Source: Candidatus Helarchaeota ASGARD archaeon Hel_GB_A (lineage in GTDB: Archaea; Asgardarchaeota; Lokiarchaeia; Helarchaeales; HEL-GB-A). Taken from it: a stretch of 52,512 nucleotides of DNA. Each line of letters begins with the position of its first letter. Position 1 is the first letter of the stretch. The notes beneath the pieces are model-generated. The model searched no databases. It saw only the letters and a program-made list of their open reading frames with translations, and was not told the DNA's origin. A program made the translations under genes and the position numbers. Of this stretch, positions 5,364 to 41,839 are shown in pieces. The DNA lies in NCBI GenBank assembly GCA_005191415.1, contig SUPS01000001.1, positions 1-52,512 on the forward strand, written 5' to 3'.

Positions 5364-8300
5364 ATGACAGTTCCGCTACGATTGCGTTTGATTTCAAGTA
5401 AAAAGTTCGAGAAGCCTATCTATACTGTAGCGACAGGTGATTTTGATGGCGATGGACGTTTAGAACTTGCAATTGGCTGTGGTGATGGGAGCCTTCAATT
5501 ATTTAAATTCGATAGAGGAAATTTAAACTCGGTCTGGACTACCAAATCTTGGGCTTGGATTGATCAAATCATTGCTGCCGATATAAATCAAGACTATATC
5601 GATGAATTACTCGTAATTATGGGCAAAAAATTGATTATCTATAAATATAAAGACCCAACTTATGAACAAATTTGGGAAATTGAAACTAACGCCACCATTA
5701 CTTCTGTTTTCGTGGGTGATTCGAATAATAACCGCCAAAATGAATTATTGATCTGTTGCAATGACGGCTCGATCACGATATTTGCACAAACGGAAGAACC
5801 CTTTAAATTTAAAAAAGTCTGGAGAAAAAAATATGAAGGTGACACGCTCATCAGTCTCGGTGATTTAGACGCTGATACCTTGAATGAGATGGTCATAGCA
5901 AACAATAACATACTCCGGATTTTCCGTGTAATTGAAAAATATCCTAAGAAAGAAGTTTGGTCTGAAACCTTCAAAGCCTACATAAAGAAATTATTATTAT
6001 TCGATTTAAATGATGATAAAAAATCAGAAATTTTCTTAGGAATGGAGGATGGAGCGCTACGAATATTTAGTCATAAAGATGGAAATTATTTCTCTGAAGA
6101 TAAACAATATAAATTCACAAATCTTGTCTCTGCTTTAGCATCAGGAAAAATCCATGATAAAAATATCATAATAGCAGGGTCTTATGATAATACTTTACGA
6201 GGATTCCGGGATGCCGAGATCTTTAAGATTGAAACTTACGATAAGATTTACGCGCTCTCATTTTCTGATATAGACCATGATGGAATCGATGAAATTATCT
6301 GTGCAAGTGGTAATAACCTTTATATTTTAAAAGATGAAGTATTTCTCATTTGCCAAATCGATTATCCCATATCCATCTTCTCTGAAAAAGAGCTTATAAT
6401 TACTTTTTACATAAAGAATAACTCAGAAAATCGAATTTACAACATAGATTTCTCAAATTTAGAGTGGGTTCCCAAAATTTTAACTTTAAAAAAATCAACC
6501 TTCAAAATTCCCCTTCTCGAAAAATATAGTGGGGTCGAATTAACTTTCAAATTTGACGTGCCTTTGGTTGAAAAGGTCACTCCTGTTGTATTTCCACGGT
6601 TTAAAATAACATTCGAAATGAAAAATTTACAATTATCACAAAATATTCCTGAAATTTCAGTGAATATCCTTCCACCCTTCTCTCATATTGCACAAAATAT
6701 TCTCAAGAAATGTGAGCACCTCACAAATATAAAAGTTCCTTTGAAATCACTTACAAAGCTTGTCGAAAAGGATCTTGGTCCTTTAAATCACGATATCGAA
6801 CAGATTATTTCTCGACTAATTGAAGAAGGCTTTATTGAAGGGTCACTTTCTAATTGGGTTTTATTTATTCGCGATTTAAAACCTTTCTCTGCAGAAGCTT
6901 TCAAAGAAGAATATCCATCGGCTCAGAAAGTTATACCTCCACGCCTTTTTATGAATGTGTTAAGAAAGATTATCAAAAGCAAAAAGAGAACACTATTGCC
7001 TGAACTTATTAATCAGTATAAACATGATCTACAAGAAATCCAGGACATGATTAAAAAACTTAAAGATAACTTTGAAATTACAGGTGTATTAATTCCCGAT
7101 GAAGAATTTCTCTTTTTATCGGATAATGAAATTAACCAGATTGTTGAAACTATTAATAATACTCCTAATATCTCACTTTCAGAGATTGCCGCACGTTTTG
7201 ACCTCCTTGAGAAAGAAGTAGAATTTCTTATCAACGATCTTATCGATCGAGGTATGTTGTATGGCCAAATAATCACTCTTGATAATGAAAAAAAATTCAT
7301 TACCGTAAAAACCTTATCAGAACTTCTTCTGAATGAATTAGAAAAGCAAGGTAAAATAACTATCTTGACTTATTCTCGAAAAATGGGTCTCTCTGCCGAT
7401 CTTGTCCGTGAGGCGATAAGAACTCTTCTTGACTCAAACCAAATTCAAGGCACCTATACTTTCAATGGAGCTATCTTTTATACTCAAGCTCGACTTGAAA
7501 AGGATTTATTAGATACCATCAAAATTTCAGAAATCAGTAGTATTGGACTAAGCTCATTAGCGAAAGACTTTATGATTTCTAAAGACACAATAACTGCAAT
7601 TTTAAACAATCTCATCAACAAACAGCTAATTAATGGATATATCTCAGAAAATACTCTCTTTATAAAGAGCTATGAAGAAGAACGGTTACGTGATATTTTT
7701 GAAAAATATGTAGATGCTTTAAATCTCATTCATATATTAATAATTCACAAAGAAAGTGGAATTGCCATTTTCTCTGGATCATATACTACTGAAAAAATTG
7801 ATCCTGTCCTTGTTTCAGGATTCTTACAAGCTATCACTTCTTTTGGTTCCGAAATTTCAGGAGATCACGCTCCTTTTAGACTCTTACATTATAAAAATTT
7901 TAAAATTTCTGTTCAAGAAGGACAACATATTCTTGGTGCCCTTATCCTCAAATCAGATCCTTCCCAACGACTTCTCGATATCTTAAAGCATTTTATCCGG
8001 TTTTTTGAAACGAATTACCGCGAACATCTTCAAGATTTCCGTGGTGGTATTGATCCTTTTCAGGATGCAGATACTTTAGTTGATGACTTTTTTGAAATCA
8101 GCTTGAGTTTCCCCCATGAAATCAATGAAAAACAAGTGTTTAAAAATCGAAATAAATTATCTGCGAATGATCTTGTTTTAATTAATTTAGCACGGAGCCT
8201 TGGACGCCAATTTGCCCTTGGAACCTTGATAGAACTCGCTAGTAAGGAAATGTTGATTTCCCAACTTGAAGCATTTTCTATAATTTATGACTTACGAGAT

Positions 8301-8423
8301 AAAAACATTTTCTACGTCCCTAGTGAAGAACGTAAATGGTGCCCCCATTGCGGGTCCATCATCCAAAAGTCGGCGACTACCTGTCCTCATTGTTTACGCA
8401 ATATTCACGAAACTCTTGATTAA
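5364..8423 (+). CDS. Multidomain protein: 7-blade FG-GAP-type beta-propeller, beta-sandwich, tandem winged-helix array, longin-like domain, winged helix and C-terminal zinc ribbon
   Basis: 1019-aa ORF. Seven repeats of the type TGDFDGDGRLELAIGCGDGSLQLF (aa 1-325; D-x-D/N-x-D-x3-E in six of seven). All-beta segment at aa ~326-437. Five repeats of a ~45-aa wH-like unit at aa ~455-768 (e.g. LSEIAARFDLLEKEVEFLINDLIDRGMLYGQI). A beta-beta-alpha-beta-beta-beta-alpha segment at aa ~785-890. WCPHCGSIIQKSATTCPHC at aa 992-1010. Confidence 0.8.
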   Translation: MTVPLRLRLISSKKFEKPIYTVATGDFDGDGRLELAIGCGDGSLQLFKFDRGNLNSVWTTKSWAWIDQIIAADINQDYIDELLVIMGKKLIIYKYKDPTYEQIWEIETNATITSVFVGDSNNNRQNELLICCNDGSITIFAQTEEPFKFKKVWRKKYEGDTLISLGDLDADTLNEMVIANNNILRIFRVIEKYPKKEVWSETFKAYIKKLLLFDLNDDKKSEIFLGMEDGALRIFSHKDGNYFSEDKQYKFTNLVSALASGKIHDKNIIIAGSYDNTLRGFRDAEIFKIETYDKIYALSFSDIDHDGIDEIICASGNNLYILKDEVFLICQIDYPISIFSEKELIITFYIKNNSENRIYNIDFSNLEWVPKILTLKKSTFKIPLLEKYSGVELTFKFDVPLVEKVTPVVFPRFKITFEMKNLQLSQNIPEISVNILPPFSHIAQNILKKCEHLTNIKVPLKSLTKLVEKDLGPLNHDIEQIISRLIEEGFIEGSLSNWVLFIRDLKPFSAEAFKEEYPSAQKVIPPRLFMNVLRKIIKSKKRTLLPELINQYKHDLQEIQDMIKKLKDNFEITGVLIPDEEFLFLSDNEINQIVETINNTPNISLSEIAARFDLLEKEVEFLINDLIDRGMLYGQIITLDNEKKFITVKTLSELLLNELEKQGKITILTYSRKMGLSADLVREAIRTLLDSNQIQGTYTFNGAIFYTQARLEKDLLDTIKISEISSIGLSSLAKDFMISKDTITAILNNLINKQLINGYISENTLFIKSYEEERLRDIFEKYVDALNLIHILIIHKESGIAIFSGSYTTEKIDPVLVSGFLQAITSFGSEISGDHAPFRLLHYKNFKISVQEGQHILGALILKSDPSQRLLDILKHFIRFFETNYREHLQDFRGGIDPFQDADTLVDDFFEISLSFPHEINEKQVFKNRNKLSANDLVLINLARSLGRQFALGTLIELASKEMLISQLEAFSIIYDLRDKNIFYVPSEERKWCPHCGSIIQKSATTCPHCLRNIHETLD

Positions 8424-25189: not shown

Positions 25190-25340
25190 TTTTTTCTCAA
25201 CAATTCTTCTGTTTGTGTATTTAAAATTATATTAGAATTTAAAATTTCAGCTTTCTAGTTAAATTTTTGAGGACTAAAATTCATAGATAAATTGTCAATT
25301 AATAAATACTTTTCATCAATTAATAGGAGTTTGAGCAACT

Positions 25341-26090
25341 ATTCAAATAGCATTTTTCCTCGGAATTGGAATCGCTATTATAGCTATCTTAATCTTTATA
25401 ATTGTTTATTTAAAATATCTCCGCGGCCGGGAAATAAGGCGATTTAGCGCGGATCAAATAAAATCCCAAATTGGCGACCTCTCAAATCTCGCGCATATTC
25501 TCGTAATTTATAAACAAAGCGGTATCGCGATATTTTCCCAAAATTTCGGTTATGATTATCTCGACCCGACTCTCCTTAGTGGTTTATTGGAAGCTATCAA
25601 TATCGTAGGTTCCAAGGTAGGTGCCAAAGGGAAACTGCGCCGCCTTGAATATGAAAAATATCGAATTTTGATTCATGAAGGTAGATATGTTCGTGGAATT
25701 GTTATGTGTCGTGAAAACCCTTCATCTTTCTTAGAAGATGCCTTGACCGTTTTCGTTAAGCGTTTTGAGAATAAATTTGCTGGTACTTTAATGGAATGGA
25801 ACGGAGATCTAAGTAAATTTCAAACAGCAGTCGAACTTGTAGATGATTGTTTTTCGATTGCGCTCATTTATCCTATGGTCGTCATGTGGGAAGGTGAAAA
25901 TCCCGAAGAACTCACCGAACTCGAACAAAAAATCCTTGAAATCGCTAAAGAAGTTTGTCTCGAAAAAGAGTGTTTTCTCATTCCTGACTTGTTAGAGATC
26001 TTAAAAACAAAATTGAAAAAATCTCCCGATAAACTTCTAGCTCTTCTCTATGATCTTCATAAACGCCAATATTTTATATCACTCACGTAA
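25341..26090 (+). CDS. Membrane-anchored longin-like domain protein with C-terminal winged-helix-like module; non-canonical start or frameshift
   Basis: The frame is open from 25335 and encodes a TM helix (IAFFLGIGIAIIAILIFIIVYL) and the first longin strands (HILVIYKQSGIAIFS). These are 11/15 identical to HILIIHKESGIAIFS of the 1019-aa protein. There is no ATG/GTG/TTG in frame before the TTG at 25587. ATT at 25341 lies 11 nt after AGGAG. The ORF track only reports 25587..26090. Confidence 0.6.
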   Translation: MQIAFFLGIGIAIIAILIFIIVYLKYLRGREIRRFSADQIKSQIGDLSNLAHILVIYKQSGIAIFSQNFGYDYLDPTLLSGLLEAINIVGSKVGAKGKLRRLEYEKYRILIHEGRYVRGIVMCRENPSSFLEDALTVFVKRFENKFAGTLMEWNGDLSKFQTAVELVDDCFSIALIYPMVVMWEGENPEELTELEQKILEIAKEVCLEKECFLIPDLLEILKTKLKKSPDKLLALLYDLHKRQYFISLT

Positions 26091-26462
26091 GATGCACTTC
26101 TTTTTTTATAAAAATAATATCATTCAATTATAAGACACAACAATTTTTAGTTATAATTCTCGCTTATCGTAATTTATCAATTTTCAAAGTATAATATAAA
26201 CTTTCTTAGGTAATCCCTCCCTATGGTAAATGGAAAATTGAATTTAAGTGCTAAAAACTTCATTGGTTGTTAATATGGTAGATAAGAAACCGTTAAATTT
26301 AAGGAGATGAAATTCGGTTAGTCATAGAGAAAGGTGCTGCACATCAAAAATGTACTTGGACATCCCCGAGTGTCCAAGTTTGGCATAGTTTATATCATCA
26401 GAAAGGATCAAATTTTTATTAGTATCAATCTTTATAAAAATAACACTCGCGAGGCGATTAAA

Positions 26463-34636: not shown

Positions 34637-35062
34637 TTAGACTAAATAGTCTTCTGTAAATTTTTGAGGTGTTATTATTTGATATTTTATTCTTTTTATT
34701 AAGGGAAAATCTTTTGTAATTAGGAAATCAGCCTTAATATATGTAGCCGTTGCTGAAATCAAGGCATCAGGGAGTTTAATTTGCTGAGTTCCTCGAAGTA
34801 ATGCCGCCTTATTTGAAATTTCAACATTGACGGGAATAATTTGATATTTTGATATGGCATGATTTAGAAATTGTTCTGCTTCATGGATTTCCTTATTTTG
34901 ATAAAAGCCAACCAGAACTTCTGCAAGAACTATAGTGGATATTGCCGCTTGTATTTGATTTTCATCAATTGCATCAAGAATGAGTTCACAATAAGAGGAA
35001 TCAGTTTCTTTATTTTTTACTGAAATAAATATATTGGTATCTAGACATACCTTCATTCCCAC
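34637..35062 (-). CDS. vapC: PIN-domain toxin VapC
   Basis: 141-aa ORF. Includes MKVCLDTNIFI, which carries the first acidic residue. Typical size, and a 10-nt overlap with the upstream antitoxin gene. Confidence 0.85.
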   Translation of the reverse strand: MGMKVCLDTNIFISVKNKETDSSYCELILDAIDENQIQAAISTIVLAEVLVGFYQNKEIHEAEQFLNHAISKYQIIPVNVEISNKAALLRGTQQIKLPDALISATATYIKADFLITKDFPLIKRIKYQIITPQKFTEDYLV

Positions 35063-35435: not shown

Positions 35436-35855
35436 TTGAACGTAAAAAGTACCTATAAACAAGAAATAATCGCATTATTAAAATCAACTATCCACGGAGA
35501 GCACGAAATTTATTTAGGGTATCTTTTTGGTTCTTTCATTCAAAATAATGAATTCCATGATATTGATGTAGGAATTGTAGTAAAAAATAAAAATCATATT
35601 TCAAATGCGTTAAAATATTCATTACATTTAGGTACAAAACTTGAAAAAGCCGTGAATTACAAATGGACTATTGATGTAAAAATACTCAATTTTACTCCCC
35701 CTCATTTTCAGTTCGGCGTGATAAAAGATGGGCTATTATTTTTTTGTCGAAATGAAAAATTTCGCATCACATATGAAAAGACAATAACTAATCTATACCT
35801 TGATTTTCGCGAGACACTGTTGTGGCATTCGCGGATAATTTTGGAGCGAACTTAA
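35436..35855 (+). CDS. Minimal nucleotidyltransferase (MNT) antitoxin
   Basis: 139-aa ORF with a TTG start. LGYLFGSFIQNNEFHDIDVGIV is the GSx(n)DxD polymerase-beta-type NTase motif. Confidence 0.8.
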   Translation: MNVKSTYKQEIIALLKSTIHGEHEIYLGYLFGSFIQNNEFHDIDVGIVVKNKNHISNALKYSLHLGTKLEKAVNYKWTIDVKILNFTPPHFQFGVIKDGLLFFCRNEKFRITYEKTITNLYLDFRETLLWHSRIILERT

Positions 35856-40768: not shown

Positions 40769-41839
40769 TTATTTGGGCGCAAGGAATTTCTTCAGACGAT
40801 CTTCTTTTGTATCTAATTTTTTTCTTAATTGCGCTGCTTTTTTCCCTAATAAAAGAAATAGTGTATCTAAAAATTTGTTTTTTAAGTCCAGTTGTTCTAG
40901 AACTACTTCTACATCAATTTTATTCTCTACTTTTTCCAATAATTCTTCTAATTGTTCTGATTTTTTAACCATTTTTAAGATTGAAATTCGGATAAAAGTC
41001 AGAATTTCATTTTCTGATTTCATTTTCTTAATTTTTTTGAGTAAAGTTTTCGCAAAAATGAAATCGTTCTCTAAATTCTGAAATTTTCCTCTATCAATGT
41101 AATATGTTGGTAATTGATATAAGGATTTAAAGACGGGCGGATTTTTATTCCATTCACGCTCTTCTACCATTAAAATATCAAATGCAGGTATTTCTAGCGT
41201 GTCCGCTGTTATTGTTTCAGTTACGACGATCTTATGGGGAATGAGGGGGATGAGTGAATTGCAAATATTCATTGCAGTTTTAAGGTCTTTCCCTACGATT
41301 ACAACAGGAAAATTACAAATGATGCAATGTAAGAGTTTAACTAAATTATCTTTTTTGATGATTTTAAATAGTGATTTAATTGGTAATGTTTCAATGGGTT
41401 TTGTAAATTGATAATCTATTTTTTTAATATCTTCGAAAAGGCGCATCAATTCAACAGTGCTCACTGAGGGATCTTCACTTCTTAAGGCAGGTATGATTTG
41501 TTTTATTCGATTTTCTAAATATTCTGAATTATCATATAATAATTTTTCATCTTTCTTATCTACAAGTATTGAGACGGCTGCGGGTCTCGTGCCTCCTCTT
41601 GCCTGGCTAGTGGGAATGACGAAATAATAAATAAACATTGATAAACTTGCGAGTGACAAAGCTATAATTGCTTTTCCTTCATGGTCTTTCTGGTATTCCC
41701 CAAAAAACGATGATGTTAAAGATTGGACGGCAACATTCATAATCAACTCTTCACTGGTATCAGCCGGCAGATAAAATGCGGGCATTGGTCCGAATTCGTC
41801 ATCGAACACCGAATATAATAGAATTTTGTCGGTCATCAC
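40769..41839 (-). CDS. Hypothetical protein; candidate longin plus DENN-core (folliculin/SMCR8-like) architecture with a K/E-rich helical tail
   Basis: 356-aa ORF. The N-terminal ~120 aa has a longin-like secondary-structure pattern with FIYYFVIPTSQARGGTRPAAVSILVD. Residues ~150-225 read LPIKSLFKIIKKDNLVKLLHCIICNFPVVIVGKDLKTAMNICNSLIPLIPHKIVV. See findings. Confidence 0.7.
   Translation of the reverse strand: MMTDKILLYSVFDDEFGPMPAFYLPADTSEELIMNVAVQSLTSSFFGEYQKDHEGKAIIALSLASLSMFIYYFVIPTSQARGGTRPAAVSILVDKKDEKLLYDNSEYLENRIKQIIPALRSEDPSVSTVELMRLFEDIKKIDYQFTKPIETLPIKSLFKIIKKDNLVKLLHCIICNFPVVIVGKDLKTAMNICNSLIPLIPHKIVVTETITADTLEIPAFDILMVEEREWNKNPPVFKSLYQLPTYYIDRGKFQNLENDFIFAKTLLKKIKKMKSENEILTFIRISILKMVKKSEQLEELLEKVENKIDVEVVLEQLDLKNKFLDTLFLLLGKKAAQLRKKLDTKEDRLKKFLAPK

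Follow-up and report, generated by a model that had tools for sequence, protein, structure and literature searches.

The stretch of DNA analysed here, referred to throughout as the window, comprises 52,512 nucleotides (nt) of the Candidatus Helarchaeota archaeon Hel_GB_A (assembly GCA_005191415.1, contig SUPS01000001.1, positions 1 to 52,512, forward strand). It encodes two proteins that carry copies of one module of ~210 aa, predicted to consist of a longin-fold domain, a linker and a winged-helix-like domain: a small protein with a hydrophobic N-terminus, encoded between Pus10 and L21e, and a protein of 1,019 amino acids (aa; the 1019-aa protein). The module belongs to an uncatalogued, Asgard-wide juxtamembrane longin–winged-helix family, of which the small gene is a minimal, ectodomain-less form.

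The original prediction, made from the nucleotide sequence, had described the small protein as a membrane-anchored paralogue of the module in the 1019-aa protein and had proposed that the two form a recruitment pair. Collinearity of the two modules was confirmed by BLASTP, which aligned residues 48–247 of the 251-residue frame with residues 784–983 of the 1019-aa protein (65 of 203 positions identical, 32%; 58% positives; E=1e-31), a significant match that takes in all five of the peptide pairs quoted originally within one alignment. A tblastn search of the window placed the two copies at 25476–26075 and 7713–8312 and returned no third.

Reading frame, start codon and setting of the small gene

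The small gene occupies an open frame at 25335–26090 on the forward strand, with 251 codons from stop to stop and a closing TAA at 26088–26090 (translation of 25200–26093). The frame begins ATIQIAFFLGIGIAIIAILIFIIVYLKYLRGREIRRFSADQIKSQIGDLSNLAHILVIYKQSGIAIFS directly after an in-frame TGA at 25332–25334, and its hydrophobic N-terminal segment, QIAFFLGIGIAIIAILIFIIVYL, has a Kyte–Doolittle mean of 3.22 over 19 residues, in agreement with the N-terminal transmembrane (TM) helix proposed originally, before giving way to the basic stretch KYLRGREIRR. Basic residues flanking a TM helix mark its cytoplasmic side (the positive-inside rule), from which we infer an N-out/C-in orientation that would place the module in the cytoplasm.

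The coordinates originally given for the gene stand, but the first of them does not mark a start codon. No in-frame ATG, GTG or TTG occurs between the TGA at 25332–25334 and a TTG at 25587, so position 25335 is merely the first codon after the TGA and the mechanical open reading frame (ORF) is only 167 aa long (25587–26090); the database copy of the window's small protein (P0019) is this short form. A start at TTG 25587 would sit within helix α1 and remove strands β1 and β2 of the longin fold. A comparison of 5′ regions took in 13 distinct orthologous loci (the window, L001, L002, L003 (= L093), L088–L091 and L094–L098). All 13 keep an open, hydrophobic frame across the TM region, although a canonical start lies ahead of the membrane helix in just four of them: a GTG two codons upstream of a conserved ATT (L001), an ATG two codons downstream of it (L003), a TTG/ATG (L002) and a TTG (L095). 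The other nine have no canonical start before the helix, or only one inside or after it. An in-frame ATT-CAA (ATT-CAG in L095) was present in all 12 loci with sequence at this position, to which the comparison of the ATT was confined (L092 has no upstream sequence), and in 11 loci, L095 standing outside this count, the ATT follows GGAG (GGCG in L003/L093) at a distance of 10–11 nt. In seven genomes (the window, L001, L002, L003, L088, L090 and L098), any earlier start is ruled out by a TGA that precedes the ATT by two codons, and several called starts have the conserved peptide IQPD(L/I)LSW ahead of them. As the sole conserved near-cognate codon, the ATT at 25341 was taken as the start, and it is there that translation of the small gene probably begins.

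Three other accounts of the 5′ end were rejected: read-through of the TGA at 25332–25334 is unlikely, with no in-frame start upstream; an out-of-frame TTG at 25331 is unconserved and encodes no TM helix; and a sequencing error is an unlikely cause of the missing start, given the same pattern in independent assemblies. Non-canonical starts are reportedly disfavoured by the archaeal initiation factor aIF1 (PMC6237735), and an ATT start would therefore give low or regulated expression. If initiation at the ATT is confirmed, it would represent a rare conserved near-cognate start in archaea. The missing canonical start also matters for annotation because it leads gene callers to truncate or mis-start this gene in most genomes, yielding short proteins (167, 215 and 227 aa) or clipped TM helices for the orthologues.

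The small protein has 22 close relatives, of which the 18 that are not obviously truncated are 72–84% identical to it and 215–254 aa long, a mark of strong purifying conservation. Orthologues called at full length begin with the TM helix, and all relatives with a named source are labelled Helarchaeota or Promethearchaeota. One divergent clade stands at 43–48% identity; P0040, a member of it, does carry a TM helix. Synteny is fixed in the orthologous loci examined, with Pus10 on the opposite strand followed by the small gene and then L21e, RpoF/Rpo4 and DUF655. With an AT-rich upstream region and a run of seven T after its stop codon (Table 1), the small gene appears to be an independent transcription unit; oligo-T terminators are in general use among archaea. 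Scans for Rfam families, tRNAs, promoters and terminators around the gene yielded nothing informative. The spacer between the small gene and L21e (26091–26462) is ~370 nt long, compared with 60–130 nt in L001, L002, L088, L090 and L091, and contains no Rfam or tRNA match; the start of L21e was set at GTG 26463 by comparison with 100-aa orthologues.

Table 1. Coordinates of the small gene, its parts and the paralogous module within the window.
Feature	Position	Strand	Basis
In-frame TGA closing the frame upstream	25332..25334	+	Translation; same TGA in L001, L002, L003, L088, L090, L098
Shine-Dalgarno-like AGGAG, putative ribosome-binding site	25326..25330	+	GGAG core 25327-25330
Probable non-canonical ATT start codon	25341..25343	+	Conserved ATT-CAA
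Proposed full coding sequence, 249 codons + TAA	25341..26090	+	Open conserved frame
Predicted N-terminal TM helix IAFFLGIGIAIIAILIFIIVYL	25347..25412	+	19-residue Kyte–Doolittle mean 3.22; equivalent helix in orthologues
Basic juxtamembrane stretch KYLRGREIRR	25413..25442	+	Read from sequence
Short N-terminal helix + predicted longin-fold domain (β1β2α1β3β4β5α2α3)	25458..25868	+	AlphaFold2 and Foldseek
Linker: conserved P-[MH], short strand (model residues 141-143), loop	25869..25916	+	AlphaFold2
Predicted winged-helix-like C-terminal domain: three helices + terminal strand	25917..26087	+	AlphaFold2
T7 run 11 nt past the stop codon, possible archaeal terminator	26101..26107	+	Read from sequence
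1019-aa protein carrying the paralogous module	5364..8423	+	Pfam, AlphaFold2, Foldseek
Paralogous module in the 1019-aa protein, aa 784-983	7713..8312	+	BLASTP, tblastn

Predicted fold of the module and its Asgard family

Residues 41–251 of the small protein were modelled with AlphaFold2 (AF2; model m507899ad9dea) from a 30-sequence alignment spanning both window subfamilies, giving a mean pLDDT of 83.6 and a pTM of 0.76. After a short helix, the model forms a five-stranded antiparallel sheet with the longin topology β1β2α1β3β4β5α2α3 (strands, E, and helices, H, at E12–19, E25–30, H38–50, E61–66, E69–75, E79–85, H91–113 and H119–138 of the model), in which residues 31–60, α1 included, reach a pLDDT of only 55–65. 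Helix α3 is followed by a short strand, a loop, three helices and a terminal strand, the winged-helix-like end being predicted at H155–171, H176–187, H191–203 and E207–209 with a pLDDT of 87–94. Pro140 of the linker is almost invariant across the diverse family, and the winged-helix-like part is the least conserved region of the module.

With this predicted structure as the query, the top Foldseek matches in the PDB were longins, namely the σ and μ N-terminal domains of AP-1/2/3/4, ζ/δ-COP, Sec22b, VAMP7, Ykt6 and the TRAPP subunits sedlin and Bet5, with further longin-fold matches to Mon1-Ccz1, Fuzzy-Inturned and Npr2 (E 1e-4 to 7e-3; probability 0.97–1.0; target TM-score 0.55–0.71). The longest alignments, of 260–286 columns, extended past the longin domain in SEA/GATOR1 chains of Npr2 (8adl_S, which was checked to be yeast Npr2, and 9h4q_T) and in the GATOR1-KICSTOR chain 9o5d_C. 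Pfam and NCBIfam have no model for the module, the small protein had no match to a Pfam longin-type model (Longin, Clat_adaptor_s, Sybindin, Sedlin, NPR2 or Folliculin) even at E<=1, and a PDB sequence-profile search with the module gave chance matches only. AF2 and Foldseek thus bear out, at the level of the predicted fold, the longin–linker–winged-helix description of the module given originally.

An exhaustive HMMER profile search of 1.84 billion cluster representatives (clusters at 50% identity), with both window copies as profile seeds, recovered 3,128 representatives of the module family at E<=1e-3, 960 at E<=1e-10 and 182 at E<=1e-30; a further homologue search with a diverse family alignment gave 41 matches and added little. 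Nearly all of the top 150 matches cover the whole module (profile positions ~2–210), in proteins of 240–3,025 aa. Of the 80 best hits, 73 have a TM helix that precedes the module by 20–45 residues, while P0041 and P0044 have a weaker Gly/Ala-rich helix before it and P0100, truncated at its N-terminus, starts within such a helix; translated from the ATT at 25341, the small protein would have its TM helix 29 residues before β1. Many members place an N-terminal signal-like helix and a large ectodomain region ahead of the TM helix, the Pfam-visible ectodomains being Ig-like (Big_1, Big_3_5) or FG-GAP, and short proteins made up of a TM helix plus the module recur in other Asgard lineages (P0049, P0056, P0082 and P0176). 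All family members with a named source are Asgard archaea (Helarchaeota, Hodarchaeota, Lokiarchaeota, "Promethearchaeota", Candidatus Harpocratesius repetitus and Lokiarchaeum ossiferum), and the member in L. ossiferum (NEF87_001574) comes from a cultured organism.

The core subfamily (~1,466 aa; L007–L086) occurs as one copy in each of 80 Asgard metagenome-assembled genomes (MAGs), some of them labelled Hodarchaeota, Hermodarchaeota or Odinarchaeota, at 58–69% identity. Its members are laid out as a signal peptide, an Asn-rich ectodomain, a TM helix, the longin–winged-helix module and a helical tail of ~200 aa, and in 73 of the 80 loci the gene adjoins one for a RadA-like recombinase, assigned from the look of its sequence. 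Such a ~200-aa helical tail follows the module in many other family members and has no Pfam match. The tails of P0047, P0053, P0057, P0059, P0065, P0066, P0071–P0073, P0075, P0078 and P0084 are conserved and all-helical, and carry repeated 'Y-x-x-A-x-x-x-Y/F-x-x-A' segments that may resemble TPR- or MIT-like helical hairpins. No GTPase or roadblock gene was found near P0071.

The Asgard core gene set has been reported to include three Roadblock/longin families, with 130 Asgard clusters of orthologous genes (asCOGs) in that superfamily (Liu et al., bioRxiv 10.1101/2020.10.19.343400). A large module family fits that statement. We found no description of a TM-adjacent longin–winged-helix family in the literature, where it may be hidden among these 130 Roadblock/LC7-superfamily asCOGs.

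The 1019-aa protein and candidate roles of the small protein

The most expanded groups of eukaryote-like proteins in Asgard archaea, whose cells largely lack internal membranes, include the longin and roadblock domains and the small GTPases. A juxtamembrane module provides a testable site for such proteins, the cytoplasmic face of the plasma membrane behind large ectodomains, and the small protein offers the simplest version of the family in which dimerisation, GTPase binding and partner capture could be tested.

We consider it about evenly balanced whether the small protein, as a minimal membrane-anchored longin–winged-helix member of a large Asgard family, acts as a membrane-tethered platform. 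It would be a single-pass protein whose N-terminal TM helix holds the longin and winged-helix-like domains, joined by a helical linker, in the cytoplasm, where the module, by analogy with characterised longin domains, which act as such pairing platforms, could form dimers with similar modules, bind a small GTPase or coat-like factor, or do both. The bound factor would in turn be held at the membrane by the tethered module; the soluble 1019-aa protein, with its likeness to the BBSome, could be one such client, though not a privileged one, and the near-cognate ATT start may keep expression low or regulated.

Several observations weigh against this reading. Two members of the divergent clade, P0022 and L004 (from the Helarchaeota Meg19 MAG), start with a basic peptide and have no TM helix, so that even the closest relatives are not all anchored and anchoring is not obligatory. 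The window contains no Ras/Arf/Rag-type GTPase gene and no roadblock gene of >=110 aa, which also counts against the recruitment pair originally proposed; in the orthologous loci examined, the small gene has neither a small-GTPase gene nor a roadblock gene linked to it; and a roadblock/LC7-like ORF of 120 aa, judged by the look of its sequence, lies <4 kb from the core-subfamily gene at just 16 of the 80 loci. When 29 diverse modules were scanned at E<=10, no Pfam longin model was matched and only scattered chance matches appeared. GAP-type (GTPase-activating protein) longins such as NPRL2, FLCN and SMCR8/C9orf72 have a GP motif that ends the β1-β2 loop (PMC12290439), which is missing from the module, where the conserved Gly23 is followed by Ile, Val, Leu, Thr or Ser and never by Pro. 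Nor is any arginine conserved family-wide in the manner of the arginine finger of such longins, although Arg62, a candidate counterpart of NPRL2 Arg78, is nearly invariant in the two window subfamilies, and hhalign of the family profile against human NPRL2 (its sequence verified against PDB 6ces_N) gave a probability of 0.2 and E 0.28; together, these results speak against a role as a catalytic GAP like NPRL2 or FLCN. Lastly, the spacing from GGAG to the ATT is 11 nt, compared with 7–9 nt in other GGAG-preceded genes of the window, among which there are also two outliers at 14 and 21 nt.

The second carrier of the module in the window is modelled by AF2 as a β-propeller (residues 7–325), a β-sandwich (328–436) and five winged helices (439–766), followed by the module and a C-terminal zinc ribbon, which makes an unusual series of eukaryote-like domains. 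Foldseek matched it to the BBSome subunits BBS9/7/2/1 (E 2e-16 to 5e-13), to ITFG2 of KICSTOR and to the winged-helix array of UFL1/DDRGK1; its Pfam matches agree with this picture, and its winged helices are UFL1/DDRGK1/PCI-like. Within the full-length model the module copy has a pLDDT of 33–60, so its fold there is neither confirmed nor contradicted. There is no TM helix in the 1019-aa protein, consistent with the large soluble protein described originally, and it is one of the family's rare soluble members, with a predicted structure that recalls coats or adaptors. It has 14 orthologues at 51–68% identity (12 of them full-length), those with names coming from the same lineage, and the module is 64–78% identical among them as against 51–68% for the whole protein.

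We regard it as unlikely that the small protein serves the 1019-aa protein as a dedicated membrane receptor or heterodimer partner, with longin–longin pairing recruiting the soluble BBSome-like scaffold to the membrane. Co-occurrence of the two genes, as the original prediction had anticipated, is found in Helarchaeota: both are present in the genome of the window and in MAG DATKTP01, they share a strand and are separated by 17.8 kb in the window and by 26 kb on the 154-kb metagenomic contig Ga0315277_10000077, and the small gene was present in four of the five metagenome samples that have the gene for the 1019-aa protein. Arg62, nearly invariant in both window subfamilies, is not conserved across the wider family, and the LRRLEY/FRLLHY strand is likewise common to these two subfamilies and not to the wider family; the resemblance of the 1019-aa protein to a coat or adaptor subunit, and the fact that paralogous longin heterodimers are the rule in eukaryotes, also speak for such a pair. 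However, co-occurrence is to be expected of any two lineage-conserved genes, the two are not in one operon, and at least three further family members in Helarchaeota (P0054/P0193, P0064/P0196 and the core A4 type) make other partners equally possible. Bit scores favour other relatives over the second window copy, and the two modules are therefore not sister paralogues: the module of the 1019-aa protein scores 130–142 bits (35–41% identity) against many other members and ~110 bits against the small subfamily, while that of the small protein scores 127–131 bits against the receptor-like P0046, P0043 and P0044 and 112–118 bits against the 1019-aa subfamily. The special two-member recruitment pair originally proposed is not specifically supported by these results, the module being found in at least 3,128 clusters and normally membrane-tethered; a specific heterodimer of the small and 1019-aa proteins is unprivileged and improbable. 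MAG DATKTP01 (L003/L006, P0029) bears the bacterial name 'Candidatus Deferrimicrobium sp.' in GenBank, a taxonomic label that looks wrong since it carries both Helarchaeota-type genes in archaeal synteny.

The similarity to the receptor-like members allows a different partnership, in which the small protein is an ectodomain-less co-receptor or decoy that pairs in the membrane with the juxtamembrane modules of full-length receptors and modulates their signalling. Sharing their TM-plus-module layout without an ectodomain, it is as similar to P0046, P0043 and P0044 as to the 1019-aa family, its weak ATT start would suit a dose-limited regulator, and short TM-plus-module proteins recur in the family; its conservation at 72–84% and its own fixed position beside L21e-RpoF nevertheless suggest an autonomous role, and we hold this account, too, to be unlikely. 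With no canonical start before 25587, and with gene callers giving the 167-aa P0019, the small gene could be a decaying or N-terminally truncated gene from which only the ORF from TTG 25587, or nothing, is made, the TM helix being an untranslated relic. We consider this very improbable, since the TM region has stayed open and hydrophobic at every orthologous locus even where no canonical start precedes it, IQPD(L/I)LSW is conserved, the internal start falls inside α1 and loses β1-β2, and the remainder of the protein is 72–84% identical to its orthologues. The conserved position between Pus10 and L21e-RpoF-DUF655, kept in every orthologous locus examined, together with the winged-helix-like domain, could instead point to a membrane-tethered nucleic-acid-binding (ToxR-like) or translation-linked factor serving the L21e-RpoF-DUF655 genes. 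Against this stand the poor conservation of the winged-helix part, which has no conserved basic recognition helix, the gap of 60–370 nt to L21e with the T-run after the small gene, the absence of linkage to translation genes in other family members, and the established role of NPRL2/3-type winged helices as protein–protein modules; such a factor is equally far-fetched.

Returning to the membrane-tethered platform, a more ambitious version of it would see the family as an Asgard-wide class of single-pass receptors that couples ectodomains to the recruitment of GTPases or coats, with the ATT-initiated small protein as a dose-limited receptor that docks the 1019-aa protein by longin heterodimerisation. 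We think this combination distinctly unlikely; if true, such a receptor class would be a prokaryotic forerunner of the eukaryotic logic that leads from receptor to longin to GTPase or coat.

Elsewhere in the window, a 356-aa protein (40769–41839, reverse strand) has a sub-threshold Pfam match to Folliculin (PF11704; E=2e-4; 21.5 bits against a cutoff of 23.3; residues 68–174) and is possibly a longin of the FLCN/SMCR8 type, from a family other than the module's. A PIN-domain protein (34637–35062, reverse strand) lies close to a Polβ-type nucleotidyltransferase (35436–35855, forward strand), and these genes look like ordinary toxin–antitoxin-like elements.

Comparison with known longin and roadblock systems

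Among described Asgard proteins, the ESCRT-associated multidomain proteins of Makarova et al. (PMC11188069) draw on the same vocabulary of longin, Ig-like and PCI/winged-helix repeats and, like the module family, are Asgard-specific and patchy, with shuffled architectures. They differ in being defined by Vps28-C/steadiness-box domains, which were not detected in the module proteins scanned, and the juxtamembrane placement of the module is not described by these authors. Two other classes were rejected for the small protein: a ToxR/CadC-like regulator, there being no Trans_reg_C or helix-turn-helix Pfam match, no ectodomain and a poorly conserved winged-helix region; and a longin SNARE of the VAMP7/Sec22/Ykt6 kind, as its TM helix is N-terminal, a linker and a winged-helix-like domain come after its longin domain, and it has no Synaptobrevin match.

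Roadblock/LC7 domains, as in MglB, LAMTOR2-5 and the C-terminal domains of Rag proteins, share with the module the broad roadblock/longin/profilin superfold, and they share the logic of a GTPase platform. Roadblock matches to the model were, however, weaker (E ~5e-3 to 7e-3 for LAMTOR and RagA; TM-score 0.42–0.55 for LAMTOR), and no Pfam Robl_LC7 match was found in the small protein or in 29 diverse members. The module has two helices after β5, in the longin order, whereas the roadblock domain runs α-β-β-α-β-β-β(-α), its helices flanking the sheet.

NPRL2/NPRL3 of GATOR1/SEACIT and the module have their parts in the same order, a longin domain and then a small C-terminal domain of helical or winged-helix type, and a likeness to KICSTOR/GATOR1 extends to the 1019-aa paralogue, which carries a propeller like that of the KICSTOR subunit ITFG2. 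In contrast to NPRL2/3, the module has no TINI segment and is membrane-anchored, and filing it as NPRL2-like by sequence was ruled out by the negative hhalign result. Asgard 'NPRL2-like longin' proteins have been noted by Liu et al. (bioRxiv 10.1101/2020.10.19.343400).

Eukaryotic longins typically form homo- or heterodimers that serve small GTPases or coats as platforms, as in AP σ/μ, NPRL2/3, FLCN/FNIP, Mon1/Ccz1 and TRAPP (PMC12290439, PMC10933270). The module shows no sequence-profile similarity to them and adds a short N-terminal helix and a winged-helix-like domain, and the anchor of the small protein is an N-terminal TM helix, where eukaryotic longins have a C-terminal SNARE/TM segment or belong to soluble coats. 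Across this distance in sequence, the module and the eukaryotic longins (AP σ/μ, ζ/δ-COP, Sec22b/VAMP7/Ykt6, TRAPP and Mon1-Ccz1) have in common the same predicted topology and the occurrence of multiple paralogues per genome.

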